A stretch of 64,000 nucleotides of DNA from Pseudomonadota bacterium (GTDB lineage: Bacteria; Pseudomonadota; Gammaproteobacteria; GCA-001735895). Of the stretch, positions 20,055 to 43,135 are shown piece by piece. The notes beneath the pieces were generated by a model, which ran no database searches, had not been told where the DNA came from, and saw nothing but the letters and a program-made list of their open reading frames with translations. The DNA lies in contig JADFJT010000001.1 in NCBI GenBank assembly GCA_022566015.1, positions 29,143-93,142 on the forward strand. Direction: 5' to 3'. Numbering within the stretch: the stretch's first letter is position 1; each line of letters begins with the position of its first letter. Position numbers and translations under genes: made by a program.

Positions 20055-20085
20055 TAAAATTTATAAAAACCTTTACTTTATTCCG

Positions 20086-24070: not shown

Positions 24071-24104
24071 ATTCGATAATTCTAATATTATGGAATTATC
24101 GAAT
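24071..24104. promoter_or_regulatory. Perfect 12-10-12 inverted repeat ATTCGATAATTC-N10-GAATTATCGAAT overlapping the arsR start codon
   Basis: Read directly; ArsR/SmtB operators are typically 12-2-12-like inverted repeats overlapping their own promoter. Confidence 0.5.
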
Positions 24105-24383: not shown

Positions 24384-24392
24384 ACGGAGAAA

Positions 24393-24842: not shown

Positions 24843-24850
24843 GTAAGAAA

Positions 24851-25567
24851 TTAAAGTCTGATAAAAAACGTCGCAATCCAGTCTGCCAGTACCTGCGTAT
24901 CGGCCTTACGGCCGGTAGCCTGCATATCGGCCAAAGCCTTTGTAGCCACTTCCTCAGGTACTATATTGCCACTGTACATTTCAAGCAGTGCGGTTTCATA
25001 CTCTTCTCCAAACTCGGGGTGCGCCTGTATGGTAATGATCGAGTCACCGTAGCTAAGGCCGGCGTAGGGACAAAATTCAGAACTGAAAAACGGCCTTGCA
25101 GCGGGTGGTTTCTCGACTACCTGATCCTGGTGAAAAGCATAGATACCGACCTGCTCCGGATCACCGTCCATCCACTTTTGCACCGCATCGATTTTATAGC
25201 TATGTAACCCAACCGCCCATCCCCTGTCCGATTTCACCACTTCCCCACCGAGCGCCTGAGCAATTATCTGATGCCCGAAACATATACCGACAAGAGGTAC
25301 CGAAGCATGATTAAGCGCTCGAATAAAATCCTGTAAAACAACCATCCAGCTAAGATTTTCATATACTCCAAAGCGCGACCCAGTGATAAGCCAGCCTTCG
25401 CAATCATGGACTGAGGCTGGCATTTCGCCTTGTATAACACTGAACGTCTGATACTGAAGATCCCGTTTAGCCCGGTTCAGTAATGAAGCGAACATGACTG
25501 GATAGGGATCGTACTTACCGACCAGCCTTTCGTTTAATAGCCCAGTTTCGAGTATACCTATTTTCAT
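24851..25567 (-). CDS. Class I glutamine amidotransferase-like protein (PuuD-like gamma-glutamyl hydrolase candidate)
   Basis: GATase1 motifs GICFGHQ and catalytic HPE. Confidence 0.6.
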   Translation of the reverse strand: MKIGILETGLLNERLVGKYDPYPVMFASLLNRAKRDLQYQTFSVIQGEMPASVHDCEGWLITGSRFGVYENLSWMVVLQDFIRALNHASVPLVGICFGHQIIAQALGGEVVKSDRGWAVGLHSYKIDAVQKWMDGDPEQVGIYAFHQDQVVEKPPAARPFFSSEFCPYAGLSYGDSIITIQAHPEFGEEYETALLEMYSGNIVPEEVATKALADMQATGRKADTQVLADWIATFFIRL

Positions 25568-25942
25568 TATTTAGATGCCTGGTATGTCCAGTGCAATATA
25601 TCATCCTGATTCTGTTATCGACAAAATTACGCGAAGCAGGCACCCGCCAGCTATGTGCATAGAATGGTAACTCATTGAAGTGTCTAAAACGTTCAGAGTG
25701 ACTATCAGCTACCTCGTAAATCGATTCCCCAACCAGATACATGGACCAGGGCATACCACTAAAGCCGCCGTCGAATACGCAAACTTGGGCTTCGAAACAG
25801 GCTTGAAACCAGTCGCGCCCAGCCGACGGGTTTGCCGAGGCCGCATAATGCAATACCTATGTGGGTCGGTGCCTGCTTCGATGGTGTCGACTTATTCATC
25901 CCTTCTGGCCCATTAACAGGGTAATTCCAATTCGAATTTAAT

Positions 25943-25952
25943 GTGATCACAA
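25943..25952. promoter_or_regulatory. TGTGATCACA palindrome (copy 1 of 6)
   Basis: TAATGTGATCACAAAC in the GATase1/gntR intergenic region. Confidence 0.5.
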
Positions 25953-26049
25953 ACTTTCAATTTGGTCAAGAACGATTTATTATCATTTATAGTTTCCCGT
26001 CTAATTTTGTGATTAAATATTAATTAATCTCCCTGAAACCACTAATAAT

Positions 26050-26760
26050 ATGCAAGCATCTAAATCTACTAATCTTGAATTATTGATGCTGGAAAGGGCC
26101 GCGTCGCAGAACACCAATCAATGGGTTTACCAGTTACTACGCACTAATTTGCTGTGCGGAAAAGTTCAGCCAGGTCTTCCGCTGACGATTAGAGGAGTTG
26201 CTGAAGCGCTGGGTGTGAGCCCGATGCCGGTACGAGAAGCCTTTCATCGGCTAGCTTGTGAAGGCGCGGTCGAGGTAAAAAATAATCGTCGCGTGATCGT
26301 GCCAATAATGACCGCAGAAAAATTCAGCGAGTTATGCGACCTGAGGATATTACTCGAAACTCACGCCGCACAAAGCGCTTTACCTTATATTAGAGATCCG
26401 GATATAGTTAGCCTGGAGCTTATTGATGGCAAGATTGACGAAGCGGTCCAGGAAGGCAATGTTGAAAACATGAGCCTGCTCAATCAGGATTTTCATCGTA
26501 CCCTGTATAGCGCCAATCCCTTCCAGATTGTCGTACCCTTGATTGAAAGCCTGTGGCTTCAGCTTGGGCCCTTTTCCAGGATAGCTATCAGTAAACTAGA
26601 GAAAATATACATCGTCGATCGGCACGTCGAGGCAATAGCCGCCCTCAAACAGCAAAATTCGTTTGCTTTGCGGCGCGCTATCGAAGCCGATATCCGCGAC
26701 GGCATTGCTTCCATTAATTCTGTTGAGGGCATCCACAATTATTTCGAGGGTGTCGCCTGA
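26050..26760 (+). CDS. GntR-family (FCD-domain) transcriptional regulator
   Basis: wHTH RGVAEALGVSPMPVREAFHRLACEGAV plus C-terminal FCD-like helical domain. Confidence 0.8.
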   Translation: MQASKSTNLELLMLERAASQNTNQWVYQLLRTNLLCGKVQPGLPLTIRGVAEALGVSPMPVREAFHRLACEGAVEVKNNRRVIVPIMTAEKFSELCDLRILLETHAAQSALPYIRDPDIVSLELIDGKIDEAVQEGNVENMSLLNQDFHRTLYSANPFQIVVPLIESLWLQLGPFSRIAISKLEKIYIVDRHVEAIAALKQQNSFALRRAIEADIRDGIASINSVEGIHNYFEGVA

Positions 26761-26787
26761 TTCGAGCCTGGCAAAGCGCAGTATTTC

Positions 26788-26795
26788 GTGATCAC
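26788..26795. promoter_or_regulatory. GTGATCAC palindrome (copy 2)
   Basis: ATTTCGTGATCACTTTAA upstream of the GS-like gene. Confidence 0.5.
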
Positions 26796-26842
26796 TTTAA
26801 ACACAAAAATCAGAACTCAATCGGAGACTGGAATAGTTATTT

Positions 26843-26852
26843 GTGATCACAT
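26843..26852. promoter_or_regulatory. TGTGATCACA palindrome (copy 3)
   Basis: TTATTTGTGATCACATAG, 33 nt upstream of the GS-like start. Confidence 0.5.
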
Positions 26853-26884
26853 AGTAAGAAGAACTATTCACCGAAGGCATATAT

Positions 26885-28246
26885 ATGAAGCAACTTTCGA
26901 GCAGCCAGTTAAATAGAGAAATAATAGATTTAATTCAAAATCACCCCGAAATTGACGAATTTGAAGTGCTTGCGATTGACTTAAGTGGTCATTTTTACGG
27001 TAAACGCTATCCGATTGCCAGTTTGAAATCTTTTGCTAGCGAAGGACTCGCATTTCCAAGGAGCGCTATCGTTATGAACGCACTGGGGGAACCGCTAGAA
27101 GGTATTTACTATGGAGAAGGTGATGGCGACCCCGATGCGCAGTTTTCTCTGATTCCAGGCACTTTGTCGGTCAACGACTGGGGTAACAAGCCCCGCGCCC
27201 AGATAATGGCCACTGCTTCTAGCGGCAAGGAAGCCACGTTTTTTGAACCCCGTAACCTGCTAAAGAAAGTCCTGCAAGCCTACCAGACCAAAGGCTGGCA
27301 TCCGACCGTTGCCTTCGAACTCGAATTTTTCCTGTTCTCCCGCAAACGCGATGACCAGGGTTTGATCCAGATCGTACGAAACCCCAAGACAGGCCGCCCT
27401 GACTCGCCGACTCTGTTGTCCAACACCCGTATTTCCGATTTTGAACGGGTAATAGACAACATCATCGAAGCCTGTAACCAACAAAACATCGAGACAGGAG
27501 CCGTTTCGGCTGAAATGGGTGCTGGACAGTTCGAAATTAATTTTAACCACCATAGTGATGTGATGCGCGCGGCCGATGAAACCTGCCTGTTTAAACGTAC
27601 CGTGATCGAGACCGCCAAAAAACACGGCATGATGGCAACCTTCATGGCCAAACCCTTGCTCGATCAGCCGGGGAATGGAATGCACATGCATATCAGCGTA
27701 CTCGATGACAAAGGAGAAAATATTTTTAATGCGGGCAACAAGCCACAGCAGCGATTGCTGCATGCGATAGGCGGGCTACTCGATACGATGCCCGCGGCTA
27801 TGTCTTTTTGGGCACCGAATATTAATTCTTATCGCCGCTATTCAGGTGGTAACAGTTGCTCTCCGGTAAGCCTGAGTTGGGGCCATGAAAATCGCACCGT
27901 CGCGTTTCGTATTCCACTGGCAAAGGATGGCGCCTGGCGTGTGGAAAACCGGGTCCCTGGCGCCGATGCTAACCCTTACCTGGCTATGGCGGTTTCGCTC
28001 GCTGGCATGCTGCATGGCATGAATCATAAGCTAGATCCCGGTAAACCTTGCGACGGATCGGTGGAAAACGGGGACGAGTATCTACCGCTTAGCCTGAGTT
28101 CGGCGCTTGCTATCTCTATTGGTAGCGAAGTACTGATCGATATTCTCGGCCGCGATTTCATCGAACTATACTGCCAACACCGCAAAGCCGATAAAGCGGC
28201 TTTCGAGCAATTTATCAACGCACGGGAATACGACTGGTATCTTTAA
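26885..28246 (+). CDS. Glutamine-synthetase-family protein (gamma-glutamyl-polyamine synthetase, PuuA-like)
   Basis: 453 aa with GS catalytic-domain motifs (MHMHISV, NxYRR-like NSYRRY). Confidence 0.75.
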   Translation: MKQLSSSQLNREIIDLIQNHPEIDEFEVLAIDLSGHFYGKRYPIASLKSFASEGLAFPRSAIVMNALGEPLEGIYYGEGDGDPDAQFSLIPGTLSVNDWGNKPRAQIMATASSGKEATFFEPRNLLKKVLQAYQTKGWHPTVAFELEFFLFSRKRDDQGLIQIVRNPKTGRPDSPTLLSNTRISDFERVIDNIIEACNQQNIETGAVSAEMGAGQFEINFNHHSDVMRAADETCLFKRTVIETAKKHGMMATFMAKPLLDQPGNGMHMHISVLDDKGENIFNAGNKPQQRLLHAIGGLLDTMPAAMSFWAPNINSYRRYSGGNSCSPVSLSWGHENRTVAFRIPLAKDGAWRVENRVPGADANPYLAMAVSLAGMLHGMNHKLDPGKPCDGSVENGDEYLPLSLSSALAISIGSEVLIDILGRDFIELYCQHRKADKAAFEQFINAREYDWYL

Positions 28247-28287
28247 CCAGTAGATACCAGGCCAAAAAATCTCAGTGGTAAAGAATC

Positions 28288-29214
28288 ATGAATAACGACG
28301 AATTCACTAATAGTGTTTCAATGCACTCTAACCTGTTTGGATATATGGGTGCATCCTTAAGCCGAAATACAGACGATGCTGATGTGTTCGTGGTTGGCTT
28401 GCCCTACGACCTTGCGACTACTGGACGCGCCGGAACACGTAGCGGCCCAACGGCTATTCGCCAGGCTAGCGGCAATCTGCGCTGGGAAGCAAAGCGCTGG
28501 CCCTGGAATTTTTGCGTATTCGATCGTCTGCGAATCGCCGACTATGGCGATCTGGAATTTCCGGCAGGTAACCACAAGAGCCTGTTCGAACAGATCGAGC
28601 AACATTATGGCACATTGCTCGCAGCCGGAAAAACTACTCTAAGTTTTGGCGGCGACCACTTTGTGACCCTGCCGTTATTGCGTGCGCATCATAAGGCGTA
28701 CGGCAAGCTCGCGCTGATTCATTTCGACGCACATACCGATACCTACTCAGAATCAGGTTCGACCTACAACCATGGCAGCATGTTTTTCCATGCACCGAAA
28801 GAAGGAATCATCGACCCAGCCAAAAGCATTCAGGTAGGCATACGCACCGAATATGACGAAGCCACGCACGAATTCCAGGTCATCAGCGCTTCCCGTGCCA
28901 ACGATCTAACGGCCGAGCAAATAATCGAGCAGATCAGCGCACGCGTCGGTGATTCGCCCTGTTACCTGACTTTCGATATCGACTGCCTGGATCCAGCCTA
29001 CGCGCCCGGAACCGGCACCCCGGTAATCGGTGGTCTGACGACCGACCGCGCACTAAAAATCCTGCACGGCCTGCAAGGTCTGAATCTGGTCGGTATGGAT
29101 ATAGTCGAAGTCGCACCTTCGTACGATCACGCGGAAATCACCGCGCTGGCGGCTGCGACCCTGGGCTTGGAGATGCTGTATGTGTTCGCGGCTAAAGGGA
29201 ATAGCAAATTTTAA
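28288..29214 (+). CDS. Ureohydrolase of the arginase/agmatinase family (agmatinase / guanidinobutyrase-like)
   Basis: Mn-binding motifs GGDH, DAHTD and DIDCLDP. Confidence 0.8.
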   Translation: MNNDEFTNSVSMHSNLFGYMGASLSRNTDDADVFVVGLPYDLATTGRAGTRSGPTAIRQASGNLRWEAKRWPWNFCVFDRLRIADYGDLEFPAGNHKSLFEQIEQHYGTLLAAGKTTLSFGGDHFVTLPLLRAHHKAYGKLALIHFDAHTDTYSESGSTYNHGSMFFHAPKEGIIDPAKSIQVGIRTEYDEATHEFQVISASRANDLTAEQIIEQISARVGDSPCYLTFDIDCLDPAYAPGTGTPVIGGLTTDRALKILHGLQGLNLVGMDIVEVAPSYDHAEITALAAATLGLEMLYVFAAKGNSKF

Positions 29215-29419
29215 CACCCTATTTTCACTATTCCAGCCAGTCAAGAAAGGAGATGCGCGAAACTGGTTTAGTACTCTATACAAATAAAAATTTGTCCAGC
29301 TTTGCCAGGTAGAATTTTACTGCCTGTCGGGCGGGTTACTCACCGATTTTTTGGCTACCTGTAAAGGCTTAATCATATTTGTATAACAGGGCACAGACCC
29401 TGATGTTTGATTAAAATAG

Positions 29420-29806
29420 TCAAAAACCCCAGCCCAGGCTTAAGCCAACAAAATCACCACCGACTTCGATATTGTTGAAGCCAAACAATTCGGAGCTGGA
29501 ATCTAATTCAAACCGGCGCGCGTGAATACCAATTCGCTGTTCGCCAAATTTGTAAATCAATCTTAATCCATACTGTAGCGATATATCGGTGTCCCGATCC
29601 TGCTGGAAAGTGACGGGAATGCTGAATAAAGTGCCGTGCAATTCATAACTGATTAGATTATAACCAGCTCCAATCAGCCCATAGAACTGAAGATTCTCTT
29701 CTACCGGATAAGGCGCCACGAGGCTGGCGCTAAAGTTGGATTCATCGACGTCAACTTTATCGCTGACCGAGCAAAGAAAGCATCGGATTTTCGTATTGAG
29801 CTGTCA
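29420..29806 (-). pseudogene. C-terminal remnant of an outer-membrane beta-barrel protein
   Basis: Alternating-hydrophobic beta strands ending ...GLSLGWGF with a C-terminal Phe. Only about 128 codons stop-to-stop, no signal peptide, GTG/none start. Confidence 0.45.
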
Positions 29807-29847
29807 GGTCAACCGTGGCTAAGTTCACAGAATGACAGGGGCCGCGC

Positions 29848-31344
29848 TTAGGAATTCGCCACCTCAGGTAACACGGACGCAAGCACATCGATACCGTTTC
29901 TAAGTATTTCAGGCGGAACACTCGCAAAACCCAGCACCAAGCCACCGCGCTTTGGCGGGTGTTGGTAGCAGCTGGACAAAGGCATGATGTCGATTCCCCG
30001 GGAAGCCGCGGACTCAGACACGGCCACATCATCTATGCCCTCTGGCAACCAGCCTATCAGGTGAAATCCCGCATTGGTTGGTGAGACATCAAGCAAACCA
30101 TCGAGTTTCGAGTGCGCCGCTTCAAGCAAGGCATCCTGGCGTTCTTTATAAATCTTACGCATGCGGCGAATATGTCGTGCAAAATGCCCCTCCGTGATGA
30201 AATTCGCCACCGCCGCCTGCAAGTGTGTTGGCGGACCTTTCGAAATAATACCAATGGCGGAAGTAAAAGCTTCCGACAGACTCGGCGGAATTACCAGATA
30301 GCCAAGACGCAATGAGGGGAAAAGAACCTTGCTGAAAGTTCCGATATAGATCGTACACTCATGCTGATCGAGCCCCTGCATCGCTGGCAATAGCTGGTCG
30401 ATATAGCGAAATTCACTATCGTAATCATCTTCTATCAACCAAGCATCCCTCTGGCGTGCCCATTCGAGAATTTCCAGACGACGCGAGAACGGCATGACCA
30501 TGCCGAGTGGAAGCTGGTGTGAGGGCGTTAGGTAAGCGAGCCGGGCATTTGGTTCCAGCGCGCAACCTGCTGTAACGTCGAGACCGTGTTTATCGACTGG
30601 CACTGGTATCAAATTTAAGCCCGCAGCTACAAATGCGCCTCGAGCCCCAACGTATCCGGGCTCTTCAACCCACACCGAATCACCAGGATCGAGAAGCATA
30701 TTGGCGACCAACCCAAAGGCCTGTTGCGCTCCTGCTACGATAATAACCTGTTCCCAACGACAGGTTATACCACGAGCGCTCGCGAGATAGGATGCGATCG
30801 CTTTTCGTAAGGGTCGGTATCCAGCCAGTTCTCCATAGCCCATTTTCCCATCATCAAGCCTGTGCCACTGGCGTGCAAGAACCTTTGCCCAGATTTTGAA
30901 GGGGAATTGTTCCAGTCCAGGAACGCTGTGAACAAAGGAGCGTGCATGAGAATAGCCTGAATTATCCTGAGCGTCGGCGATCTTGAGCCCGCACCTGGAA
31001 AGGGATGCAGCAGAAAGAGGTTTTTCTACCCCTGATAATTTCTTGGTGGCTGCTGGTTGCAATAGCTCATCGATGATTTGCGACGCAACGTAGGTTCCAG
31101 AGCCTCAGCGGCTGGACAAATAACCTTCGGCTATTAACTGATCGAACGCATGTCTGACCGTTGTTCTTGATACTTTGAGGTCGTACATCAATTCGCGTGT
31201 CGAAGGAATCCGTGTCCCCGAAGCAAGTTCTCCGGAAATAATTAAGCTGCGTAAAGTATCGTAAATCTGATGGTAAAGCTGCACGGTGGAATTTCGGCTC
31301 AGATTTATTGCATCTAAAAATGCGCCATCGGGGGATTTGGACAT
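29848..31344 (-). pseudogene. MocR/GabR-family regulator (GntR HTH + class-I aminotransferase-like domain) interrupted by an in-frame TGA at 31105-31107
   Basis: HTH ORF 31105-31344 and aminotransferase-domain ORF 29848-31062 are in the same frame. The junction reads ...AEGYLSSR-TGA-GSGTYVAS..., the conserved MocR linker. Confidence 0.7.
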
Positions 31345-31492
31345 GATCTTCTTATGTTAAAGCATGCAAATTGGGCTTCCCATTTTGTTCTATAGTGGGT
31401 CTTGACACAAGCCCGCTTTAACAACAAGCTACATCATAATAAGCACCAGGCGGGTAAACACTATTATCGGGGACTCCCCCGAGGAAAACACT

Positions 31493-32986
31493 ATGATCAA
31501 GCTAAAAACATTTATCGTCACGGCTGTGCTGGCCGTGTTGCCGATATCACTGGCACAGGCGGCGGGCGGGACTTTCCTTACGGCTCACGATCTTGGCTTC
31601 GGCGGTTCAGAAAATGCCGATCCGATCCACCCGAATCGCTTCTGGCAGGTCACCGAAAAGACAATGAACCGTCTAGTCCGGCCATCCGCGGCGGGAGAAC
31701 CTACCCCGGATCTGGCTGTGTCCTGGTCGGCAAATGATGCTGCGACCGAATGGACGTTTAAGCTCCGCGCAGGCGTCAAGTTCCACGATGGGACTGATTT
31801 TGATGCAGCCGATGTAGTCGATTTGCTGAATCGAATTAAAGATCCTGAACTCGACTCACCCGTCGCTTCCGTCCTTGCGGTGATGGAGAAAGTCGAGGCC
31901 ATCGATCCTTTGACCGTGAAAATATCCTTGTCTGCGGCTCATGCGGATTTTCCCATGCTGATCATGGATTATCGTATTCGGATGACCCCCTCAGGTTCAG
32001 GCGATACGATTGGGAAGACAGGCATCGGCACCGGCCCGTTTATTCTGGAAACTCTCGACCCTGAGGGTACGACAGTGCTGAAGGCCAATCCCGACTATTG
32101 GGAAGGGGCACCGGCTGTTGAAACAATTAAGATCATCGCCATTCCAGACGCACAGGCTCGTGTCCAGGCGTTGCTTAGCGGCCAGATAGATATGCTTCGT
32201 CATATTTCGGCACAGGAGAAGGTGCTCTTCGAAAACAATCCGAAATTTAAAATTCAACAGGTCAACACGGGTGACTGGCTGGCGGCTATCGTTTTTAGAA
32301 CCGACATCGAACCTTTCACCGATGTTCGCGTCCGTAAGGCGGTGCGTATAGCTGCCGATCGCGAGGCTATGATTAATCTGGTGCTAGGCCCCGGTGGCGG
32401 TGTTGTCACATGTGACCACCCGGTATGGACAGGCGATCAATACCGCGCACAGATCGAATGCCCACAACAAATTGATGAGGCTAAACGGTTGCTTGCTGAA
32501 GCGGGCTATCCCGATGGTATCGAAATTGATGTAGTCACCAGTGACCTCAGAGCCCTCTGGGTCGATATGGTCCAGGTTTACCAACAGCAGGTTGCGGCGG
32601 CGGGGATCAAGATTAATCTGGTGAAGGCCCCGGCGGACGGATATTGGTCGGACGTGTGGATGAAAAAACCAGTTGTGACCACGAGTTGGGGACAGCGTCC
32701 TGCTGATCAGGTGTTCAATGAAGCTTATCGCAGTACCGCTTCCTGGAATGAGAGCTATTGGAAAAATCCCGAATTTGATCGAAAGTTGGATCAGGCTCGC
32801 CAGGAACTCGATCGCGCGAAACGCACGGCTCTTTACCAGGACCTCCAAAAAATGCTTTTTGAAGAGGGCGGAACTTTCACCCCGTTCCATGTGAATCAGG
32901 TGGTCGTGACGAGCGCTCGGGTAACGGGACTTCCGGTAATGTTCGACGATGGCGTTCAATACCACAATGTAAGTGTTGGCGAGTAA
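31493..32986 (+). CDS. ABC transporter substrate-binding protein, family 5 (Dpp/Opp/Nik-like)
   Basis: 497 aa with signal peptide and SBP_bac_5-like sequence. Confidence 0.8.
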   Translation: MIKLKTFIVTAVLAVLPISLAQAAGGTFLTAHDLGFGGSENADPIHPNRFWQVTEKTMNRLVRPSAAGEPTPDLAVSWSANDAATEWTFKLRAGVKFHDGTDFDAADVVDLLNRIKDPELDSPVASVLAVMEKVEAIDPLTVKISLSAAHADFPMLIMDYRIRMTPSGSGDTIGKTGIGTGPFILETLDPEGTTVLKANPDYWEGAPAVETIKIIAIPDAQARVQALLSGQIDMLRHISAQEKVLFENNPKFKIQQVNTGDWLAAIVFRTDIEPFTDVRVRKAVRIAADREAMINLVLGPGGGVVTCDHPVWTGDQYRAQIECPQQIDEAKRLLAEAGYPDGIEIDVVTSDLRALWVDMVQVYQQQVAAAGIKINLVKAPADGYWSDVWMKKPVVTTSWGQRPADQVFNEAYRSTASWNESYWKNPEFDRKLDQARQELDRAKRTALYQDLQKMLFEEGGTFTPFHVNQVVVTSARVTGLPVMFDDGVQYHNVSVGE

Positions 32987-33105
32987 ACACTGTTCGCTGT
33001 TGGTTAATTCGGGCACAACGTAAAAACAGGAGCGCAAGGAGTTTCCCTGGTCGGTAACCCCTTGCGCATCCCTCCCAGTTTCAGCCAGTCGTTGGGAAAA
33101 TAAAT

Positions 33106-34029
33106 TTGAAACTCGTTAGCTATAATATCCGTTTTGGTCTCGGCCTCGATCAGAAAGTTGATCTAGAACGCATTGCTGATACCGTAAAAGACGCCGACAT
33201 CATCGCTCTGCAGGAAGTCGAACGTTTTTGGAAGCGAAGTGGCATGACGGATCAGCCGGAAATAATTTCAAGTTATCTGAAACAATACTATTGGCTTTAC
33301 TTCCCGGCCTTTGATGTAGATGCAAGCGAGGTCAATGGCGACGGGTCCATTTTAAATCGACGCCGCCAATTTGGTCCCATGGTACTTTCTCGATGGCCCA
33401 TTCGCATGGCGCGTTACATCGTGTTCCCGAAATTGGGCACGATAGACAGTTTGGCTATGGATACGGGGGCTATAGAGTGCGTCGTCGATACGCCTTCGGG
33501 ATCTTTAATGGTTTATTCCCTTCATCTATCTGCGGTTTCAAGCCGCGACCGCCTGATGCAGGTTGATCGTTTATTGGAATTCTACCGCAACGCCCCGGTG
33601 AGCGGCGGTTCCTGGACGGGGGGTGGTGAGTGGGTTACCGACCCAGTCGAGAGCAAACATATGGCTGAGCTGAACTGGAGTAATGATGAGTCTATTCCAC
33701 TGATACCCAAAGAAGCTGTAGTGATGGGTGACTTTAACATGATACCCGATAGCGAAGAATACAACCGGATGGTTAGCGCGCCGGACCATAGCTTTGGTCG
33801 GGTTGGGCATACGGACAGTTTTCTCGATAGCTGGACTGTGGCCAGGGAACGTTCAGATGAACGTGTCAGTTGGTTCCCCGATCCCTCCGAGCGTAAACCT
33901 GGCTATCCTATATGCCTGGATTACTGCTTCATATCGCCTTACCTGTCACAAAAGGTCCAGCGCGCCTGGATCGAGCAGGATTCGATTGGCTCGGATCATA
34001 AACCTTATTGTGTTGAACTGGACTTCTGA
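33106..34029 (+). CDS. Endonuclease/exonuclease/phosphatase (EEP)-family protein
   Basis: N-terminal VSYNIRFG...DADIIALQEV and C-terminal GSDHKP motifs of the EEP fold; no signal peptide; TTG start. Confidence 0.7.
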   Translation: MKLVSYNIRFGLGLDQKVDLERIADTVKDADIIALQEVERFWKRSGMTDQPEIISSYLKQYYWLYFPAFDVDASEVNGDGSILNRRRQFGPMVLSRWPIRMARYIVFPKLGTIDSLAMDTGAIECVVDTPSGSLMVYSLHLSAVSSRDRLMQVDRLLEFYRNAPVSGGSWTGGGEWVTDPVESKHMAELNWSNDESIPLIPKEAVVMGDFNMIPDSEEYNRMVSAPDHSFGRVGHTDSFLDSWTVARERSDERVSWFPDPSERKPGYPICLDYCFISPYLSQKVQRAWIEQDSIGSDHKPYCVELDF

Positions 34030-34124
34030 ATTCATGCGTAATGCCCCACCTCCTTGCTATCTGATGACGTGATAGCGACACTAGTAAATCGCTTGATCGC
34101 TGCAGGCAAGCGAACGGGGGCATT

Positions 34125-35075
34125 ATGATCAAGCTTTTCCTGCAAAGAATTGTGCTCGGATTACTCACGCTGGTGTTTGTCTCCGGCATTGTGTTCGTTG
34201 CGGTAGAAGCCCTCCCCGGTGATGCCTGTACGGCCTATCTGGGGAGGATGGCCAAGGGAACACGTCTGGAAAACTGCCGCAGGGATTTCGGGATCGAGCG
34301 TCCCGCCCTGACACGGTACGCCGAATGGACGCTGGGGACGCTGCAGGGCGATTTCGGTATGTCCTTGAGCCGCGATAAGCCGATCTCCGACATCATCGGC
34401 ACACGTCTTCGAAATACACTGATTCTTGGTTTGAGCGCAACTCTTATCGGCGTGCCACTAGCAATTTTTCTGGGAATTATTGCGGGTCTCTGGCGAGATC
34501 GACCGCTGGATCTGTGGATTTCCACCATCGCGATCTTCGCTATGACAATTCCCGAGTTCGTGAGCTCAACACTGTTGATTTTGGTATTTAGCGTGTGGCT
34601 TGGCTGGCTTCCAGGCATCGTAACAACGCCGCCCAACGCGCCGCTAACCGAGTTCCTGTCAGATATTATCCTTCCTATCATCGCGCTCGCGCTGGTTATG
34701 ACGGCTCACATCCTGCGCATGGTTCGTACCAGCGTGATCGACGTCATGGGTAGTGATTACGTCCAGATGGCGCGGCTTAAGGGTGTTCCTTACTGGCGCA
34801 TGGTGTTTCGGCATGTGTTGCCAAACGCCCTGTTGCCAACGATCAATCTTGTCGCTTTGACGATTGCATGGTTATTGGGAGGCGTCGTCGTCATCGAGGT
34901 GGTGTTTAATTATCCCGGCCTCGGTCGCCTGACGATTGATGCTATTTCGGATCGCGATCTCGCACTGGTTCAAGCCATTGCTCTCGTATTAGCGGCTGTC
35001 TACATTGGTCTTAACCTGTTTGCGGATTTGTTGACATTGATTGTTAATCCGAGGCTCAGGACGATGCGGCATTAA
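34125..35075 (+). CDS. ABC transporter permease (DppB-like)
   Basis: 316-aa multi-TM protein with an EAA-like loop. Confidence 0.8.
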   Translation: MIKLFLQRIVLGLLTLVFVSGIVFVAVEALPGDACTAYLGRMAKGTRLENCRRDFGIERPALTRYAEWTLGTLQGDFGMSLSRDKPISDIIGTRLRNTLILGLSATLIGVPLAIFLGIIAGLWRDRPLDLWISTIAIFAMTIPEFVSSTLLILVFSVWLGWLPGIVTTPPNAPLTEFLSDIILPIIALALVMTAHILRMVRTSVIDVMGSDYVQMARLKGVPYWRMVFRHVLPNALLPTINLVALTIAWLLGGVVVIEVVFNYPGLGRLTIDAISDRDLALVQAIALVLAAVYIGLNLFADLLTLIVNPRLRTMRH

Positions 35076-35077
35076 TC

Positions 35078-35965
35078 ATGAGTGACACAACAACCCTGAT
35101 ACGAGAAAATGCATTCGTTAAACTGTTGAATATTTTAGCAGATATGGTTTCGCGGCCTTCCGGCCTCGTGGGGCTCTCTCTGGTCGGTTTCCACATTGTT
35201 CTGGCTATCGTATCACCGGCCATCGTGCCTTACGATTACAGGGTTATGGATTCTCTGGCGATCCTCAGCGGACCTTCGGCCGAACATTGGTTGGGCACTG
35301 ATAACCTTGGGCGTGATATTCTGACGCGAACAATGCTAGGTGGCCAACAGGCACTCCTGGTGACCAGTATTGGAACTGTGATCGCCATAGCGTGGGGCGG
35401 TATGTTAGGGGTCATGTTAGGGCTCATCGGTGGGTGGCTCGAGAATCTCGTGATGCGTCTGGTCGATGCTTTTCTTGCGATTCCATGGATATTGTTCCTG
35501 CTGTTGATCGTTTCTGTGGTTGGCCTCGGTAACGCTGTGCTGATCCCTACGCTGGCTTTTTTCTACGGTATCCCTGTTGTACGAATGTCCCGAGCGGCAA
35601 CCCATGATGTGGTGGCGCTCGATTATATTACGGCTGCCAGGGCGCGAGGTGAATCGAGAATAACAATAGTAATAAAAGAACTGCTGCCCAACGTGCTGGA
35701 TGTTTTGCTGGTTGAAGCGGCCATGCGCTGGTCATGGATGCTTCTGGCGTTTAGCTCGCTGTCATTTCTCGGGTTTGGCGTTACGCCTCCTACGGCGGAC
35801 TGGGGCTTGATGATTGCTGGTGCGCGGAGCTTCATGTCGTTTGCGCCCTGGGCCGTGCTGGCGCCTGTGGTCGCGCTCAGCTCTTTGATTATCGGAATCA
35901 ACTTGAGTGCCGATGCATTAGCCAAGGCTTTGGGTATAGACCGCGCCCAAAAGGCACCGCTATAG
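35078..35965 (+). CDS. ABC transporter permease (DppC-like)
   Basis: 295-aa multi-TM protein; 3-nt spacing from the upstream gene. Confidence 0.8.
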   Translation: MSDTTTLIRENAFVKLLNILADMVSRPSGLVGLSLVGFHIVLAIVSPAIVPYDYRVMDSLAILSGPSAEHWLGTDNLGRDILTRTMLGGQQALLVTSIGTVIAIAWGGMLGVMLGLIGGWLENLVMRLVDAFLAIPWILFLLLIVSVVGLGNAVLIPTLAFFYGIPVVRMSRAATHDVVALDYITAARARGESRITIVIKELLPNVLDVLLVEAAMRWSWMLLAFSSLSFLGFGVTPPTADWGLMIAGARSFMSFAPWAVLAPVVALSSLIIGINLSADALAKALGIDRAQKAPL

Positions 35966-35967
35966 AA

Positions 35968-38055
35968 ATGATGATGAACGATCCACTGATTCAGGTAAAA
36001 GATCTCAGCGTCGGTTTTACCAATCGTGCAGGTGACACGCTGCCAATCCTGCGCAACATTGATCTGTCGCTCCACAAGGGCGATACGATTGGGCTGGTTG
36101 GTGAATCGGGATGTGGCAAGAGCACCCTGGCTCTCGCCATGATGGGCTACCTGAAAACCGGTCTGCGTGTATTGGACGGGGAAAGCGATTTTAAAGGGCA
36201 CGATGTGTTCGGTCTCGACCATCATGCTCTGGAAGATATTCGCGGCGGCGAATTGGCGCTGATCCCGCAAAATGCTGGCCAGTCATTGACACCGACAATG
36301 CGGATTGGGCAGCAGATCAACGAAGCATTGATGCTGCACACCAGCCTCTCGAAATCTCAGTGGCGTGAGCGCTCCATTGAAGTCCTGACACAGGTTCGTC
36401 TGCCAGAACCGGAAGTCCTGTTTGATCGCTACCCGCACGAACTTTCTGGTGGTCAGCAGCAGCGTGTTGCCATCGCCATGGCGCTGGCCGGTGAGCCAGA
36501 CGTATTACTGCTCGATGAACCTACGACGGGACTCGATGTAACCACGCAAGCTCATGTGCTGGAGTTGTTGAGTGGGCTGGCGGCAGAGACTGGAATGGCT
36601 ATGGTTTATGTCAGCCACGACCTGGGAGCTATTGCGCGAATCTGTGATACGGTGGTGGTGATGTACGCTGGGGAAATAGTCCTCAGTGGTACAGCACGCC
36701 AGGTACTGAAGCACCCTGATCACCCCTATGCTCGTGGGCTCCTCTCATCGATTCCGCGATTAAAGGAAGCCGTTGTGCCGGCGTCAATGCCTGGACAGCC
36801 TCCAGCCCCTGGAGGAGCAGGTAATGGGTGCGGATTTGTGGACCGCTGCCCCCTGGCTGAACAACTATGCCACGATGAGAGGCCGCTACTGGAACCCGGG
36901 GCAGGCAGTGAAATGGTACGTTGCCATTTTCATGAAAGCCTTGAACAACTCCCACCTCCTGAGCCGCCAAAACGACCCGAGCGAGCGAATCTGGAGGGAG
37001 CGGACAGCATTTTGCAGCTCGAAGATGTGGCGATCAGCTATCACGAACCCGGTTTTTTTGAAAATATTCTGGGACTTGAATCGATGGTTCCCCCCACAGT
37101 CGATAGAGTCAATTTGACTATCCGCAAAGGCGAAACTATTGGATTAGTGGGTGAATCCGGAAGTGGTAAGTCGACCATTCTTCGGGCGATTGCTGGCTTG
37201 AAAGCGCCATTGAAAGGTTCAATTAAGTTTGAATCGACTGAAAACTTAAATGTTTCTGTCGATCATCGCGCAAAAGACACCTTGAGAAGAATACAGCTCA
37301 TTTTCCAAAATCCGGACTCATCTTTGAATCCGCGCCAGACAGTAGGCGAGATCTTGACTCAACCCCTGAAACTTTACTTTGGCCTTCAAGGGGAGGAATT
37401 GCGTGAGCGTATTGAAGCCCTACTGAATCGCGTTCGCCTACGTGTGGATTATATCGGTCGCTTGCCCAGTCAGCTATCCGGCGGTGAAAAGCAACGGGTC
37501 GCAGTGGCACGCGCATTCGCGGCTGAACCGGATCTGGTTTTGTGTGATGAGGTGACCTCCGCCCTTGATGTCTCGGTTCAGGCGGCTGTTCTCGAGTTGC
37601 TGACCGAGCTTCAGGCGGAGCAGGACACGACTTATATTTACGTTTCGCATGACCTGTCGGTCGTCCGCGCCGTGTCCGATCGGGTGGCCGTGCTTTACCA
37701 GGGCAGGCTATGTGAAATAGGGCCTGCGGAAAAAGTTTATAGCTTGCCTTCTCATCCCTACACGGAAGCGCTGCTTGGTGCGGTACTGGAACCTGATCCT
37801 GACATTAAGCCCAACCTGGTAACCGAAGATATCGTTGAACTCTCACCACCACCATCTGGATGCCCGTTTCAACGGCGCTGTTCGAGGCGCATAGGCGAGG
37901 TATGTGACAGGGAAACTCCTCCGTGGCAATCTACCGGGCAGGGCCATGTGATCGCCTGCCATATCCCCCTCGATGAACTACAGGTTATGCAGAAACAGAC
38001 AGACATGAGCCCTGCAACCCTGGTCGGAGATAAAACGGGCTTACTGATCACATAG
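35968..38055 (+). CDS. Fused double ABC ATPase (DppD/DppF-like, GsiA-like architecture)
   Basis: Two Walker A sites (GESGCGKST, GESGSGKST), two LSGGQ/LSGGEKQR signatures and two oligopeptide-type C-terminal Cys motifs. Confidence 0.85.
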   Translation: MMMNDPLIQVKDLSVGFTNRAGDTLPILRNIDLSLHKGDTIGLVGESGCGKSTLALAMMGYLKTGLRVLDGESDFKGHDVFGLDHHALEDIRGGELALIPQNAGQSLTPTMRIGQQINEALMLHTSLSKSQWRERSIEVLTQVRLPEPEVLFDRYPHELSGGQQQRVAIAMALAGEPDVLLLDEPTTGLDVTTQAHVLELLSGLAAETGMAMVYVSHDLGAIARICDTVVVMYAGEIVLSGTARQVLKHPDHPYARGLLSSIPRLKEAVVPASMPGQPPAPGGAGNGCGFVDRCPLAEQLCHDERPLLEPGAGSEMVRCHFHESLEQLPPPEPPKRPERANLEGADSILQLEDVAISYHEPGFFENILGLESMVPPTVDRVNLTIRKGETIGLVGESGSGKSTILRAIAGLKAPLKGSIKFESTENLNVSVDHRAKDTLRRIQLIFQNPDSSLNPRQTVGEILTQPLKLYFGLQGEELRERIEALLNRVRLRVDYIGRLPSQLSGGEKQRVAVARAFAAEPDLVLCDEVTSALDVSVQAAVLELLTELQAEQDTTYIYVSHDLSVVRAVSDRVAVLYQGRLCEIGPAEKVYSLPSHPYTEALLGAVLEPDPDIKPNLVTEDIVELSPPPSGCPFQRRCSRRIGEVCDRETPPWQSTGQGHVIACHIPLDELQVMQKQTDMSPATLVGDKTGLLIT

Positions 38056-38511
38056 AGGTCGTTGTCAACCACTAGTATCTGGTCCCGGAGAAATTACTGT
38101 AAGTCCTGACGCTCGCGTAGTTGGGCGCAAGCGAAGTCGGTCCGCCTTATTTATTCAAGGCCGCCATCGATCACACGATATAGTGGCATGCGCTTTTTTC
38201 TCCTTGTTCTGGCCAGCACCGACCTTGAAAGTTTCTGTTACCACACACCTAGAATCCACTCTTCGAGCATCACTGTCTGTCGCTCCGGGATACTGAGCGG
38301 CGGTGAAAAGTATGATTCCAGCGCTCCGCGACGATCCATCTCCTGGATCCAGGCCGCAACAGAAAAAGAACTCTCGATGTGACCGGCCATTATTCTCGAC
38401 CCGATATTTTCCAGTTACACATCGACACCCAGGCACAATCTCCATTATGTATTTAATAATCGGGACAATGTATAGTCTTCGTTCCAGAAATAATAATACT
38501 AGGAGAAGGAT

Positions 38512-38967
38512 ATGAACGAAAATGTACAGCATGAAGTCAGCTGTTTTTGCGGTGCCGTAAGTATTACCGTAACTGGCGAGCCTGAGGTCATGGGCTATTG
38601 TCATTGCGACTCCTGTCGTAATTGGTCTGCCGGCCTTACGCATGCATTTACATTATACAAGTCCACAAATTTTAACCTCACCAAGGGGTCCGATAATATT
38701 ACGGGGTTCGATAAAAATCCGGTCAGCGGAGACACAACCGTCGTCAGCAATCGTGTCTGGTGTAAAACTTGTGGCGGACATCTCTACATTGACCACCCAA
38801 CAATGGGATTAATCGACGTACCGGCCGCCCTTATAAAAGACCTGGACTTTAAACCTGCCTTTCATGTCCATTATCAAGAGACTGTACACAAGATGAAAGA
38901 CGGCTTACCTAAGTTCAAAGACATGCCGAAAGAAGTGGGTGGCTCTGGTGAAGAATTACCCGAATAG
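38512..38967 (+). CDS. GFA-family (CENP-V/glutathione-dependent formaldehyde-activating-like) zinc protein
   Basis: CFCGAV...CHCDSCR...CKTCGG cysteine pattern. Confidence 0.7.
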   Translation: MNENVQHEVSCFCGAVSITVTGEPEVMGYCHCDSCRNWSAGLTHAFTLYKSTNFNLTKGSDNITGFDKNPVSGDTTVVSNRVWCKTCGGHLYIDHPTMGLIDVPAALIKDLDFKPAFHVHYQETVHKMKDGLPKFKDMPKEVGGSGEELPE

Positions 38968-39255
38968 TACAAAAATCCTATTCGTTCTCTTTACCTCCAA
39001 CTAATCGAGACAGTATAAATATTGGACTAGGTCGCTACTGAAACAAACCTACCTCGGGTGAAATCACTCAAATAACGCTGCGCCGATGCGTCGGACCGAC
39101 CTTTCCCAGGGCGCTCTCGTTTCAGCCCTGTGAAACGAAGTTACTGTGCAATTCACCCCGAGCCAGCGTCACCCTCTTAGATACCTTCGCGAATCTACCC
39201 AGGCTAATTGGGCGCGGGAACGCTATTAGTAAATTAGGGTGCAACTGCACAATGG

Positions 39256-41310
39256 TTATCCCAAATCCGGCATTTCTCGCCGAAACAGCGGTTCATAAAA
39301 ATCGACCTCCGATTCGAGATTTCGCGCGGCCAGATGCCCATCGTAAACTGCGGCCGCTATTGTTCCCGGTGCATTGCAGTCACCGATGGCCAGCAAGGTT
39401 TTAAATCGGTTTTGGTGGGGCAACAAAGCCTGGTATAGATCATCGGCGGGTAGCCTGGAAGTGACTAGTATGATGGTGTCGAAGGGTATCTCCTGCTGAT
39501 GTTCATTTAGGTAAACATTCGCGATTTGTGCACTGCCTTCACTGACACGAAGCAGTTCGTGCGATGTCGTCAGGGAAACACCCAGCGACAGTAGCCTTGA
39601 TTGAATCTTTTCCTGCTCGAGGGTATTTTCGGTCCAGCTCGAAACCTTTGAATCGGGTGTAACCAGATGCACATCCAGTCCATCCTGCCGGCATTGTTCG
39701 GCAATTACGCCACCCAGGTAGTAATGGTCATCGTCGTAAATTAGCACCCGCCCCTGTGGTTTAGTACCGGAGAAAATGTCGTCAGGGGTTAGCACCGACA
39801 CCGACTCAACACCCTCAATTGAGAAAGCATGTCGACGCCCGATGCCATCACGTCGCCAGTCTGAGCCAGTGGCGATGAGTATATGGCGTATTTCGAGTTC
39901 GAGAATATCCTCTGCTGAAAGCCGATTATCAAGATATAATTGTACGTTGGGCAGACGCGCTATCTGGGATTCACGATAATCGCGCACGCGCGCGTAACTT
40001 GCCAGACCCGGTAATTGACTTTCGAGTGCTACCCGACCACCGAGTGTTTTAGTTGCTTCGGCAAGAGTCACCGCATAGCCACGTTTGCCGAGTTGCATCG
40101 CGCATTCCATTCCGGCGGGTCCACCACCGACTACTAGCACCCCATCGTCACTGGCGGCTTTCTGAATGTTTTCCGGGTGCCAGTTACGCTTCCATTCCTC
40201 GCCCTGGGTCGGGTTTTGCGTGCAGCGTATCGGAGCGACAATCATGTCTTGCGCAACGCATATATTGCAGCCTATACATTCGCGGATATCTTCGAGACGC
40301 CCTTCCTCGATCTTTCGTGGTAAGAACGGGTCGGCAATCGAAGGCCGCGCCGCGCCGATTAAATCCATAACGCCGCGTTTGATCTGCGACACCATCGCAT
40401 CCGCCGAAGTAAATCGACCGACTCCAACCACCGGCTTACTGGTCAGGGTTTTAACAAATGCCGTATATTTTTCCTGGAAACCCTCCATCGGCTCAAAGCG
40501 CGCAGTGGCGGAATCGTTATCCCAGCCGCTAACATTCACATCCCAAAGGTCTGGTAGTTCGGCGAGCATACCGATAATATCGCGCCCTTCGCATTCGGCC
40601 CGCAATCCATCCTCGCCTCGCAGCTCGTCGACAGCGAGCCGCATGGCAACGGCGCATTGGTCTCCGACTGCTTCCTTGACTGCAGTGAGTATTTCTCTGG
40701 TCAGACGAACACGGTTTTCCAGGCTACCACCATACTGATCCGATCGTCGGTTATAGTGAGGTTTGAGGAAGTGCTGAAGTATACTCATGTCGTGCCCGGC
40801 GTAGACGTAGACGATATCGTAACCCGCCTTTCTCGCCAGTTTTGCTGCATTGACATGCCATTCACGTATATCATGAATATCACGCAGGGTCATCGCGCGT
40901 GCCTGTATCGGGTAATTACCATGGATTACTGTGGCACTAGGGGACATCGGCGCGATGCGGCTATAATTATTCGGTGCGTGGAGCGCACCATAGACTAACT
41001 CAATACCGGCGAGTGACCCGAATTCGTGTACCGCATCAGTCATCAGGCGATGCGGAGGTATATCTTTTTCATCCCACAGTCTTCCTTCAAAACTCGGTGT
41101 TATTTCAGCACTGGGATGAATTTCTACTTCCTGTGTACAAACCACACCCCAGCCACCCTCGGCCTTGATGCGCCGATTTTCAACCTCTGCTAGCGGGCGA
41201 CCGTGTCCCAGCGAATTGCAATGCGGTACCTGGTAAAACCGATTTTTAGTCGTGACCGGGCCAATTTGCAAGGGTTCAAATAAAATATCGTATTTTGGAT
41301 CTCGACTCAT
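39256..41310 (-). CDS. Trimethylamine-dehydrogenase-family amine oxidoreductase / N-methyl-amino-acid demethylase
   Basis: 684 aa with an OYE-like TIM barrel plus NAD/FAD-binding domain. N-terminal FYQVPHCNS has the Cys at the TMADH covalent-FMN position; 4Fe-4S motif CIGCNICV...C; Rossmann GGGPAG. Confidence 0.75.
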   Translation of the reverse strand: MSRDPKYDILFEPLQIGPVTTKNRFYQVPHCNSLGHGRPLAEVENRRIKAEGGWGVVCTQEVEIHPSAEITPSFEGRLWDEKDIPPHRLMTDAVHEFGSLAGIELVYGALHAPNNYSRIAPMSPSATVIHGNYPIQARAMTLRDIHDIREWHVNAAKLARKAGYDIVYVYAGHDMSILQHFLKPHYNRRSDQYGGSLENRVRLTREILTAVKEAVGDQCAVAMRLAVDELRGEDGLRAECEGRDIIGMLAELPDLWDVNVSGWDNDSATARFEPMEGFQEKYTAFVKTLTSKPVVGVGRFTSADAMVSQIKRGVMDLIGAARPSIADPFLPRKIEEGRLEDIRECIGCNICVAQDMIVAPIRCTQNPTQGEEWKRNWHPENIQKAASDDGVLVVGGGPAGMECAMQLGKRGYAVTLAEATKTLGGRVALESQLPGLASYARVRDYRESQIARLPNVQLYLDNRLSAEDILELEIRHILIATGSDWRRDGIGRRHAFSIEGVESVSVLTPDDIFSGTKPQGRVLIYDDDHYYLGGVIAEQCRQDGLDVHLVTPDSKVSSWTENTLEQEKIQSRLLSLGVSLTTSHELLRVSEGSAQIANVYLNEHQQEIPFDTIILVTSRLPADDLYQALLPHQNRFKTLLAIGDCNAPGTIAAAVYDGHLAARNLESEVDFYEPLFRREMPDLG

Positions 41311-41311
41311 T

Positions 41312-41817
41312 TTAGCTACTCATATTAACAACAACACGATCACGCGGCAGACCTTCTGCCGCCTGATACCAGATTTCTAATTCGCAAATATCAGCTGGAG
41401 ACATAGCCTGGGACTGTACCGGCATGCCGACCAATGCAGTATTGGGCAGGCTACTGGGTCCAAACGACGCCTTGCGGCCATACAGATTAGCGGTTGAACG
41501 TCCTCCATACCAAATCTCGACGCCGGCCAAAGACTCGTGCACCGCATCAGTTATCAAACGCAAATTTTTTATATCTCCTTCGTCCCATAGGCTCTCGTGC
41601 GGGAAGGGATGGTCATCGGAGCTGGGATGGACAGAGCAATACTCGGTGCACACCACACCCCAGCCGCCTTCGGCCTTGACACCGTGCATGGCGGCCTCAT
41701 CTGCGGCCTCTGATATCCCATGCCGCTAAAATGCGGTTCCTGGTAAAAACGATTGGGTGCGATCACCGGCCCGATTTTGACAGGATCAAATAGTGGATCG
41801 TAACGTGGGTCGCGCAT
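41312..41817 (-). pseudogene. Frameshifted, truncated duplicate of the first ~165 codons of the adjacent flavoprotein gene
   Basis: Two short ORFs (MRDPRYDPLFDPVKIGPV...; ...KAEGGWGVVCTEYCSVHPS...LWDEGDIKNLRLITDAVHE) mirror residues 1-165 of the downstream gene. Nucleotide similarity is visible (AATGCGGTaCCTGGTAAAAcCGATT vs AATGCGGTtCCTGGTAAAAaCGATT). Confidence 0.65.
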
Positions 41818-43041: not shown

Positions 43042-43135
43042 TAACCTCCGAAATGAAATTCAATTTTTTACATCGAATTCAACTTTTAAATACGAAGCCC
43101 ATGTTCGTCGATCCGCATGATCACTGTAAGGAATT

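Follow-up and report, generated by a model that had tools for sequence, protein, structure and literature searches.

A predicted uptake module with an embedded EEP-family hydrolase and a nonsense-broken MocR-type regulator, inserted between native genes of an uncultured marine proteobacterium

The acc operon of Agrobacterium mediates the uptake of agrocinopine and agrocin 84 by AccA-E together with AccF/AccG, and it is located on the Ti plasmid and horizontally mobile. In this system, a family-5 solute-binding protein (SBP) and a Dpp-like ATP-binding cassette (ABC) importer take up a non-peptide phosphodiester, which is cleaved by a cytoplasmic phosphodiesterase encoded in the same operon. By analogy, the acc system appears to be the closest functional counterpart of the gene block studied here. 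The block is situated at 29420-38055 of a 64,000-nucleotide stretch of DNA, hereafter the window (assembly GCA_022566015.1, contig JADFJT010000001.1, positions 29,143 to 93,142; all coordinates below are those of the window), and comprises a MocR/GabR-type regulator gene transcribed divergently from genes for a family-5 SBP, an endonuclease/exonuclease/phosphatase (EEP) enzyme, two permeases and a fused DppD/F ATPase. Both systems share the logic of import followed by cleavage, and AccA is detectably related to the binding protein of the block (E=5e-16). However, the enzymes and the regulator of acc are not homologous to those of the block, so that the likeness is one of logic. AccF is of the glycerophosphodiester-phosphodiesterase type and not an EEP protein, the repressor AccR is not a MocR protein, the ATPases are separate and the system is borne on the Ti plasmid. 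GsiABCD for glutathione in E. coli and YejABEF for microcin C have the same combination of a family-5 SBP, two permeases and a single fused two-domain ATPase, and the ATPase of the block matches the GsiA and YejF models with E=1e-130 and 1e-120. Unlike the block, these systems contain no embedded hydrolase, and the scores of the block proteins are far under the cut-offs of their models (GsiA 436 against 1077, GsiB 138 against 594). ExoIII/APE1, sphingomyelinase C, CCR4/nocturnin, TDP2 and Bt3783 cleave phosphoester bonds with a divalent metal, and they have the fold and the full catalytic set in common with the EEP protein of the block. A divergent regulator with a winged helix-turn-helix (wHTH) and an aminotransferase fold is the feature shared with the MocR/GabR regulons (GabR, TauR, PdxR, EhuR/EnuR), while the regulator gene of the block differs in being a nonsense mutant and in passing the broad PdxR model alone. 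GabR and TauR regulons of some Proteobacteria include Dpp/Opp-like ABC transporters, and the same survey of the MocR family describes none that includes an EEP enzyme (PMC5320631). In the literature, no characterised EEP enzyme was found within an ABC operon or a MocR regulon.

Comparison with related genomes revealed that the block belongs to a segment of about 10 kb inserted between two convergent native genes of this uncultured marine proteobacterium. The core of the segment is probably, with a likelihood that we put at about 0.6, a self-contained module for the uptake and the first catabolic step of a small organophosphate, which was ancestrally controlled by MocR. In such a module, the periplasmic family-5 binding protein would capture the solute, the DppB/C-like permeases would import it with the power of the fused DppD/F ATPase, and the cytoplasmic Mg-dependent EEP hydrolase would split the phosphoester bond as the first catabolic step. 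The operon would have been controlled by the divergent MocR-type regulator in the ancestral module, and in the present lineage mocR would have been killed by a fixed nonsense codon. The module can be described as a PepT-type importer that is mobile and has, embedded among its genes, that of a hydrolase belonging to an EEP clade as yet uncharacterised.

Domains were called with Pfam profiles and with NCBIfam models at their own cut-offs. Both agreed with the gene content and order proposed in the original prediction and listed above. The periplasmic SBP gene (31493-32986, plus strand) encodes 497 amino acids with a match to SBP_bac_5 (PF00496, E=1e-78) and an N-terminal signal peptide (...SLAQA/AGG) visible in the translation. 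It is followed on the plus strand by the EEP gene (33106-34029; 307 amino acids, TTG start; PF03372 Exo_endo_phos, E=1.2e-19), a DppB/OppB-type permease gene, permB (34125-35075; 316 amino acids; BPD_transp_1, E=6.7e-40, plus BPD_transp_1_N), a DppC/OppC-type permease gene (35078-35965; 295 amino acids; BPD_transp_1, E=2.6e-26, with a weak OppC_N match) and the gene for the fused DppD-DppF ATPase (35968-38055; 695 amino acids), which contains two ABC_tran and two oligo_HPY stretches. Thus a secreted SBP_bac_5 protein, OppB- and OppC-type permeases and an oligo_HPY ATPase, the parts of a PepT (Dpp/Opp/Nik) importer, are all encoded. The five genes lie tightly packed on a single strand with no convincing internal terminator, and they are predicted to form one operon.

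The regulator gene mocR (29848-31344, minus strand; 498 codons) specifies a GntR wHTH and an aminotransferase-like domain (Aminotran_1_2, E=2.7e-21) and is broken by a nonsense codon. When read from the ATG at 31344, both domains are in one frame and are parted by an in-frame TGA at codon 80 (31105-31107, minus strand; ...EGYLSSR*GSGTYV), immediately ahead of the wHTH wing. Owing to this TGA, the gene does not encode the single polypeptide of wHTH and fold-type-I aminotransferase-like domain that characterises MocR/GabR proteins. The identical TGA is present in contigs of three other samples (L168, L172 and L173), which makes four independent assemblies in all, and it is therefore not a sequencing error. 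TGA also terminates 11 of the 40 long genes of the window, including the EEP gene, so the standard genetic code is in use. The closest mocR orthologue (locus L001, 65% identity) has an Arg at the position of codon 80, which is consistent with a CGA-to-TGA change, and the frame remains open for 418 codons past the stop, so the lesion is recent. The mocR product is most likely dead in this genome, and the description of the block as MocR-regulated is true of the ancestral module only. In L001 the gene is also broken, as an N-terminal part of 217 amino acids with the GntR domain stands alone beside the cassette with insertion sequence (IS) elements alongside. In comparison with NCBIfam models, mocR scored 442 bits with rhizopine_MocR (cut-off 650), 259 with GabR (600) and 346 with PdxR (320). 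The PdxR model is passed, yet with fewer bits than rhizopine_MocR, and the adjacent operon is other than pdxST. The motif ...GTFSKVLFPSLRLG (TFSK), in which we take the lysine position to be the one that binds pyridoxal phosphate (PLP) from knowledge of the aminotransferase fold, is retained in the window, and TFSK is also found in L091.

The divergent genes mocR and SBP are separated by an intergenic region (31345-31492) that is the presumed site of promoter and operator. Close to the start of mocR it is partly conserved with L001 and L002 and contains TGGGCTT/TGGGTCTT repeats, and a palindrome, CGGGGACTCCCCG, overlaps the ribosome-binding site of the binding-protein gene. From their sequence, the TGGGCTT ... 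TGGGTCTT repeats and the palindrome are possible operator or translational-control elements.

Characterised MocR proteins are either activators, as GabR, TauR and PdxR are for their targets, or repressors, as EnuR is, so that the loss of mocR could mean constitutive expression or silence, and the operon would be either deregulated or uninducible. If MocR activates the operon, the nonsense codon would have silenced the cassette, and its structural genes would be heading to pseudogenes as a decaying relic. We consider such a relic unlikely. The fixed TGA agrees with it, as does further decay in and around the insert, namely an outer-membrane protein (OMP) remnant, a truncated second copy of an oxidoreductase gene of the Old Yellow Enzyme (OYE) type and a 456-bp gene-free stretch. 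On the contrary, all five structural genes are full length in comparison with their homologues, and the single-nucleotide polymorphisms (SNPs) of permB within the species are 8 synonymous and 0 non-synonymous, which together are a mild argument against silence followed by decay. The recent age of the mocR lesion speaks in the same direction, and an adjacent mocR is missing from many cassette copies in other genomes, for example L003, L084 and L164-L167, which indicates that the operon can be expressed without it. For mocR itself, SNPs within the species are too few for a test of selection.

The EEP protein has no signal peptide and is taken as cytoplasmic. Its residues N7, E37, H140, D209, N211, D272, D297 and H298 are invariant across 78 homologues and represent the full catalytic set. 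The AlphaFold2 model (pLDDT 87) predicts the four-layer alpha/beta sandwich of the family, with a Foldseek probability of 1.0 to many EEP structures. These structural matches have TM scores of 0.5-0.64 and sequence identity of at most 18%, and the best of them are the uncharacterised bacterial proteins 4ruw, 3teb, 3g6s and 3mpr, followed by Bt3783 mannosyl-6-phosphatase, neutral and bacterial sphingomyelinases, CNOT6L, nocturnin and TDP2. For the characterised enzymes alone the values are TM 0.5-0.6 and 12-18% identity. The protein differs from them further in a family-specific insertion at about residues 160-200 and in its position in a small and separate clade, of which 164 representatives were found at E<=1e-30 among 1.84 billion. 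Sequence matches in the PDB are exonuclease III proteins only, with E values of about 1e-10 and confined to the C-terminal third, and the NCBIfam xth model gives 36 bits against a cut-off of 99. In these structure, PDB-sequence and NCBIfam comparisons, the protein fits no functionally characterised subfamily, and the PDB sequence and fold searches returned generic or distant matches from which no ligand could be deduced.

The transporter, too, is not assignable to a known specificity class (dipeptide, oligopeptide, glutathione, nickel or opine-metal), as the NCBIfam equivalogs are all far below their cut-offs. The best NCBIfam matches of its parts are nickel, oligopeptide and glutathione systems, and none of DppA, OppA, GsiB, NikA and CntA comes near its cut-off. 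Apart from the GsiB value given above, the binding protein scores 126 with NikA (cut-off 393) and 80 with DppA (1005). The ATPase passes ABC ATPase-type models only and matches GsiA and YejF below the cut-offs, and no component attains the equivalog cut-off for its cognate subunit. The nearest solved relatives of the binding protein are 5u4o, HbpA, AgaA and YliB (E=1e-38 to 1e-35), ahead of DppA/OppA, and this PDB search gave distant or generic matches only, from which no ligand could be deduced. A search of E. coli genomes gave no homology to the block. Judged from the sequences, a small organophosphate is the most likely substrate, and a standard peptide, nickel or glutathione ligand is not expected.

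Homologues of the EEP protein are nearly all from marine metagenomes and metagenome-assembled genomes (MAGs). At an EEP identity of at least 52%, the five-gene cassette is found in the same order in L001-L007, L030, L084, L086 and L164-L167. The carriers belong to Alphaproteobacteria (including Paracoccaceae) and Gammaproteobacteria (including Arenicellales), and the identity of the cassette orthologues is 64-93% for the SBP and 74-92% for the permeases irrespective of class. A protein of Candidatus Spongiihabitans (P0008), whose gene context is not on record, is 85% identical to the EEP protein. The EEP gene adjoins a family-5 binding-protein gene from 100% down to about 47% EEP identity and in at least four gene orders. 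Besides the cassette order, the order SBP-permease-permease-ATPase-EEP is seen in L009 and L091, a MocR-SBP-EEP trio without permeases in L008 (Amylibacter), L011, L012 (Ruegeria atlantica) and L092, and the EEP-SBP pair alone in L180-L183. In 8 contexts, a MocR gene accompanies the pair. As the pairing is kept across the gene orders, the conserved unit is the EEP enzyme with the binding protein, and MocR is a recurrent partner. Rhizobial homologues at 36-45% identity occur in unrelated contexts (obg/proB; iron-dependent alcohol dehydrogenase (Fe-ADH), aldehyde dehydrogenase and polyamine-type ABC genes) and were left out of these deductions.

The block could also encode an ordinary importer of the PepT family for peptides, glutathione or nickel, with the EEP gene as an unrelated nuclease or DNA-repair gene in the same operon. 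The nickel, oligopeptide and glutathione systems among the best NCBIfam matches and the restriction of the PDB sequence matches to exonuclease III are in line with this explanation. We nevertheless hold it to be quite improbable. No transporter component attains the cut-off of its cognate subunit, and the structural neighbours of the EEP protein are mixed, from uncharacterised EEP proteins to a sugar-phosphate phosphatase, sphingomyelinases and nocturnin, and not specifically ExoIII. The adjacency of the EEP and SBP genes over such a range of identity and gene order, with loci where the pair stands alone, is also contrary to a chance neighbour.

The insertion extends from 29215 to 39255 (10,041 bp) and lies between the convergent genes of an agmatinase and an OYE-type oxidoreductase. 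The left one, a native agmatinase-family gene (28288-29214, plus strand; NCBIfam PRK02190, 444 bits against a cut-off of 302), and the right one, which encodes an OYE/FMN plus FAD oxidoreductase of 684 amino acids (39256-41310, minus strand; Oxidored_FMN, E=6e-70), are syntenic in three loci of relatives, L174-L176. The relatives were located in public assemblies with the agmatinase protein of the window and its homologues. L174 is a contig of a related MAG (GCA_022563685.1) with about 80% nucleotide identity, and L175 and L176 represent a further lineage with 72-77%. The spacing between the agmatinase and OYE genes is 365 bp in L174 and 109 bp in L175 and L176 against 10,041 bp in the window, and blastn collinearity with the relatives skips from 29196 to 39257 of the window. 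No remnant of the insert was found in the spacers of L174-L176. On the left, L174 keeps the gene order AMP-ligase, FadE, GGDEF, GATase, GntR/FCD, glutamine-synthetase-like gene and agmatinase, and on the right the convergent OYE-type oxidoreductase. L175 and L176 show the same order, extended by a second OYE copy, a class-III aminotransferase, TetR and a PotD-like ABC system. Contigs of the same species from several samples (L168-L173, 99.5-99.9% nucleotide identity) all contain the insert in identical arrangement. The block is therefore a real island, as shown by the empty site, the jump in collinearity and the spacers free of remnants. The comparison with syntenic genomes that had been proposed as a check thus found the block absent from the same site in all three relatives. 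The limits first given for the island, about 29.8-38.1 kb, were too narrow, as the insertion also takes in the OMP remnant, the gene-free stretch and a GFA-family gene that is absent at the empty site of L174-L176.

Base composition is by itself ambiguous as to a foreign origin. The block has 52.2% GC against 47.9% in the remainder of the window, so that the shift expected from the sequence is real, and the values of 55-60% against about 45% given for it were overstated. The 1-kb windows within the block range from 0.489 to 0.566. At the scale of the block it is the GC maximum of the window (0.525 at 29801; mean 0.485, standard deviation 0.021), and 60-nucleotide windows reach 55% GC in 38% of cases in the block against 20% outside. 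One such 60-mer, 37561-37620, quoted as about 60%, has 61.7%. The six genes of the block are GC-richer than the 48 others (Mann-Whitney p=0.0003; for GC at third codon positions p=0.024), while six genes outside the block are equally rich, among them the flanking agmatinase gene (0.533); the flanking OYE gene has 0.524. The range of 28-45% once assumed for the flanking genes does not hold. The insertion as a whole has 0.514 against 0.472 and 0.482 in its flanks, and it is a mosaic of the left junction (0.442), mocR (0.514), the cassette (0.529), the gene-free stretch (0.485) and the GFA gene (0.463). Of the sliding GC and codon-usage check put forward earlier, the GC part showed a rise of 4-5 points that is significant at gene level, and the codon part showed no deviation, since the synonymous codon usage of the block genes is within the native spread. 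As codon usage is native-like, composition is weak evidence alone and by itself would not establish an island.

The opposite history, in which the relatives lost a block that had been present here ancestrally and no horizontal acquisition took place, appears very unlikely. The native-like codon usage fits it, and the tree of the three lineages is unrooted here. In addition, a search for an integrase, IS element, tRNA gene, Rfam match or flanking repeat for the insertion gave none; scanning of the window for Rfam families and tRNAs gave no hit, alignment of the junctions to the empty sites with a repeat search gave no target duplication and no breakpoint motif, and comparison of the junction DNA with all 180 fetched loci gave matches in the same species only. 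Yet relatives at two distances, 80% and 72-77%, both have a short and clean spacer, and the cassette is patchy across two proteobacterial classes at similar identity and beside IS elements. The closest cassette copies, L084 and L086 (about 85% nucleotide identity), have other flanks and no mocR, and the GC of the cassette resembles theirs (0.514 and 0.523) and not that of the host flanks (0.47-0.48). IS or other mobile elements are also present at the cassette loci L001, L164, L165 and L167. In L165 (ERZ25072670 contig, 7479-20924), two EEP copies are present on one contig. One of them has a binding-protein gene interrupted by an IS and is surrounded by IS110, IS66, DDE_Tnp_1 and a group II intron reverse transcriptase, and the other is part of a complete cassette.

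Gene contexts gave a few hints to the substrate. In L003, phnW, phnA and phnY, all above their NCBIfam cut-offs, and an Fe-ADH gene are positioned directly upstream of the cassette, and in L091 a MocR-SBP-permease-permease-ATPase-EEP operon is followed by a gene for a PhnW-like class-V transaminase. Of the distant plasmid-borne EEP homologues, one comes last in a sugar-type ABC operon with a phosphodiesterase gene in Nitratireductor, and others are found in a Dpp-like operon beside phnF-phnGHIJKL in Sinorhizobium chiapasense and in a sugar ABC/beta-galactosidase operon in Microbulbifer. Other cassette flanks comprise a HAD gene, a cystathionine-gamma-lyase-like gene and an amidohydrolase (L006, L007, L166), TauD/PhyH/Rieske genes (L164), and PLP-decarboxylase, RidA and PNPOx genes (L167). 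By a rough estimate, 2 neighbouring phosphonate transaminases in about 20 contexts exceed chance and fall far short of a pathway. The substrate possibly carries an amine or a phosphonate, as these weak hints suggest, and the earlier conjecture of a phospho-amino compound is mildly favoured by them. A role in vitamin-B6 salvage, to which the passing of the PdxR model by the MocR gene and the PNPOx-family gene near the L167 cassette copy could point, was set aside, as there is no pdx context and as importing PLP and then dephosphorylating it would be futile. As a separate observation, EEP homologues of Mesorhizobium and relatives (L019-L049, 41-43% identity) are located beside a Na+/H+ exchanger and PhnS/PhnT-like or polyamine-type ABC genes, together with an Fe-ADH gene that shares 57-61% identity with its counterpart upstream of the L003 cassette, and these may be amino-alcohol or aminophosphonate loci. 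Phosphorus scavenging under Pho control, which would solely free phosphate from dissolved organic phosphorus, is highly improbable, for although the EEP chemistry is compatible and phn genes are near some loci, no Pho-box-like site was found upstream of the operon (5 matches in the window against 4.7 expected by chance, none nearby), the linked regulator is MocR and not PhoB, and the EEP protein is cytoplasmic while classic scavenging phosphatases are periplasmic or secreted.

Several points weigh against a self-contained uptake module for a small organophosphate. The flanks of the cassette differ nearly every time, so that the context yields no consistent pathway, and the phosphonate link occurs in only 2 of about 20 informative contexts. 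A nucleic-acid substrate may be possible because EEP enzymes also include nucleases. The native-like codon usage and the missing mobility genes described above belong here as well. In the MocR partners of L008, L011, L012 and L092, Asn or Met takes the place of the PLP lysine, and the argument from MocR to an amine effector is therefore weaker than had been assumed before. The regulators of these four loci may lack a covalent bond to PLP.

The uptake module may be specified further in a tentative and doubtful manner. The pair of EEP enzyme and family-5 SBP could be an undescribed route of uptake for amine-bearing phosphate or phosphonate esters, for which glycero-2-aminoethylphosphonate and glycerophosphoethanolamine (head-group esters of phosphono- and phospholipids) and related invertebrate metabolites may be candidates. 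The EEP enzyme would then act as a cytoplasmic 'phospholipase-C-type' esterase that frees 2-aminoethylphosphonate or phosphoethanolamine, and the freed product would be transaminated by PhnW-type enzymes and sensed by MocR. If real, this route would give host-associated bacteria a new way into marine phosphonate and organophosphorus cycling. Import and cleavage of a specific organophosphate by the module, if true, would give a function to a small and wholly uncharacterised EEP clade and to an SBP family-5 clade recurring in sponge-associated and other marine Proteobacteria, and would extend the known substrate classes of the Dpp/Opp transporters, a family in which mis-annotation as 'peptide' transport is routine. 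The mocR gene inactivated by a nonsense codon and the IS-disrupted copies elsewhere illustrate gain of the module followed by deregulation in these lineages. Overall, the module represents a well-delimited and testable lead of moderate and unsurprising significance.

The remaining parts of the insertion lie at its two ends. On the left, an open reading frame (ORF) of 99 amino acids (29420-29719, minus strand; GC 0.447) is a probable C-terminal remnant of an OMP beta-barrel, ending in ...GWGF. Its match to OMP_b-brl (PF13505) covers positions 95-175 of 175 only and is below the cut-off (E=0.0057), so that the remnant proposed for this edge is plausible and the match behind it weak. On the right, the non-coding edge of about 450 bp noted in the original prediction is real and corresponds to 456 bp without a recognisable gene (38056-38511). 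Its sole ORF (38155-38643, minus strand) has no Pfam match at E<=1, and the stretch showed no homology in any fetched locus. It is followed by the GFA-family gene (38512-38967, plus strand; 151 amino acids; PF04828, E=3.9e-18).

Beyond the insertion, the native flanks resemble an amine or guanidino-compound catabolic neighbourhood, which is conserved in L174-L176. The left side (24851-29214) comprises GATase, GntR/FCD, glutamine-synthetase-like and agmatinase genes, and the right side (39256-48970) OYE-type flavoenzymes, a Rieske oxygenase, a class-III aminotransferase, TetR and a PotD-like ABC system. The truncated second OYE copy is an N-terminal fragment of 125 amino acids (41312-41689, minus strand), at a place where the relatives have two full tandem genes of 684 amino acids each. 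It is followed by an intact Rieske/Ring_hydroxyl_A oxygenase gene (41818-43041, minus strand), the 3' end of which aligns to an ORF of 70 amino acids in L175. The comparison of 41312-43041 with L175 (13079-15377) thus apparently shows reciprocal decay in two lineages. Compared with L174 and L175, the window has another small insertion, its second, at 23948-24862 between the GGDEF and GATase genes, which holds an ArsR-type HTH_20 gene (97 amino acids, as called in L168) and an ORF of 149 amino acids with weak similarity to VOC/glyoxalase proteins.

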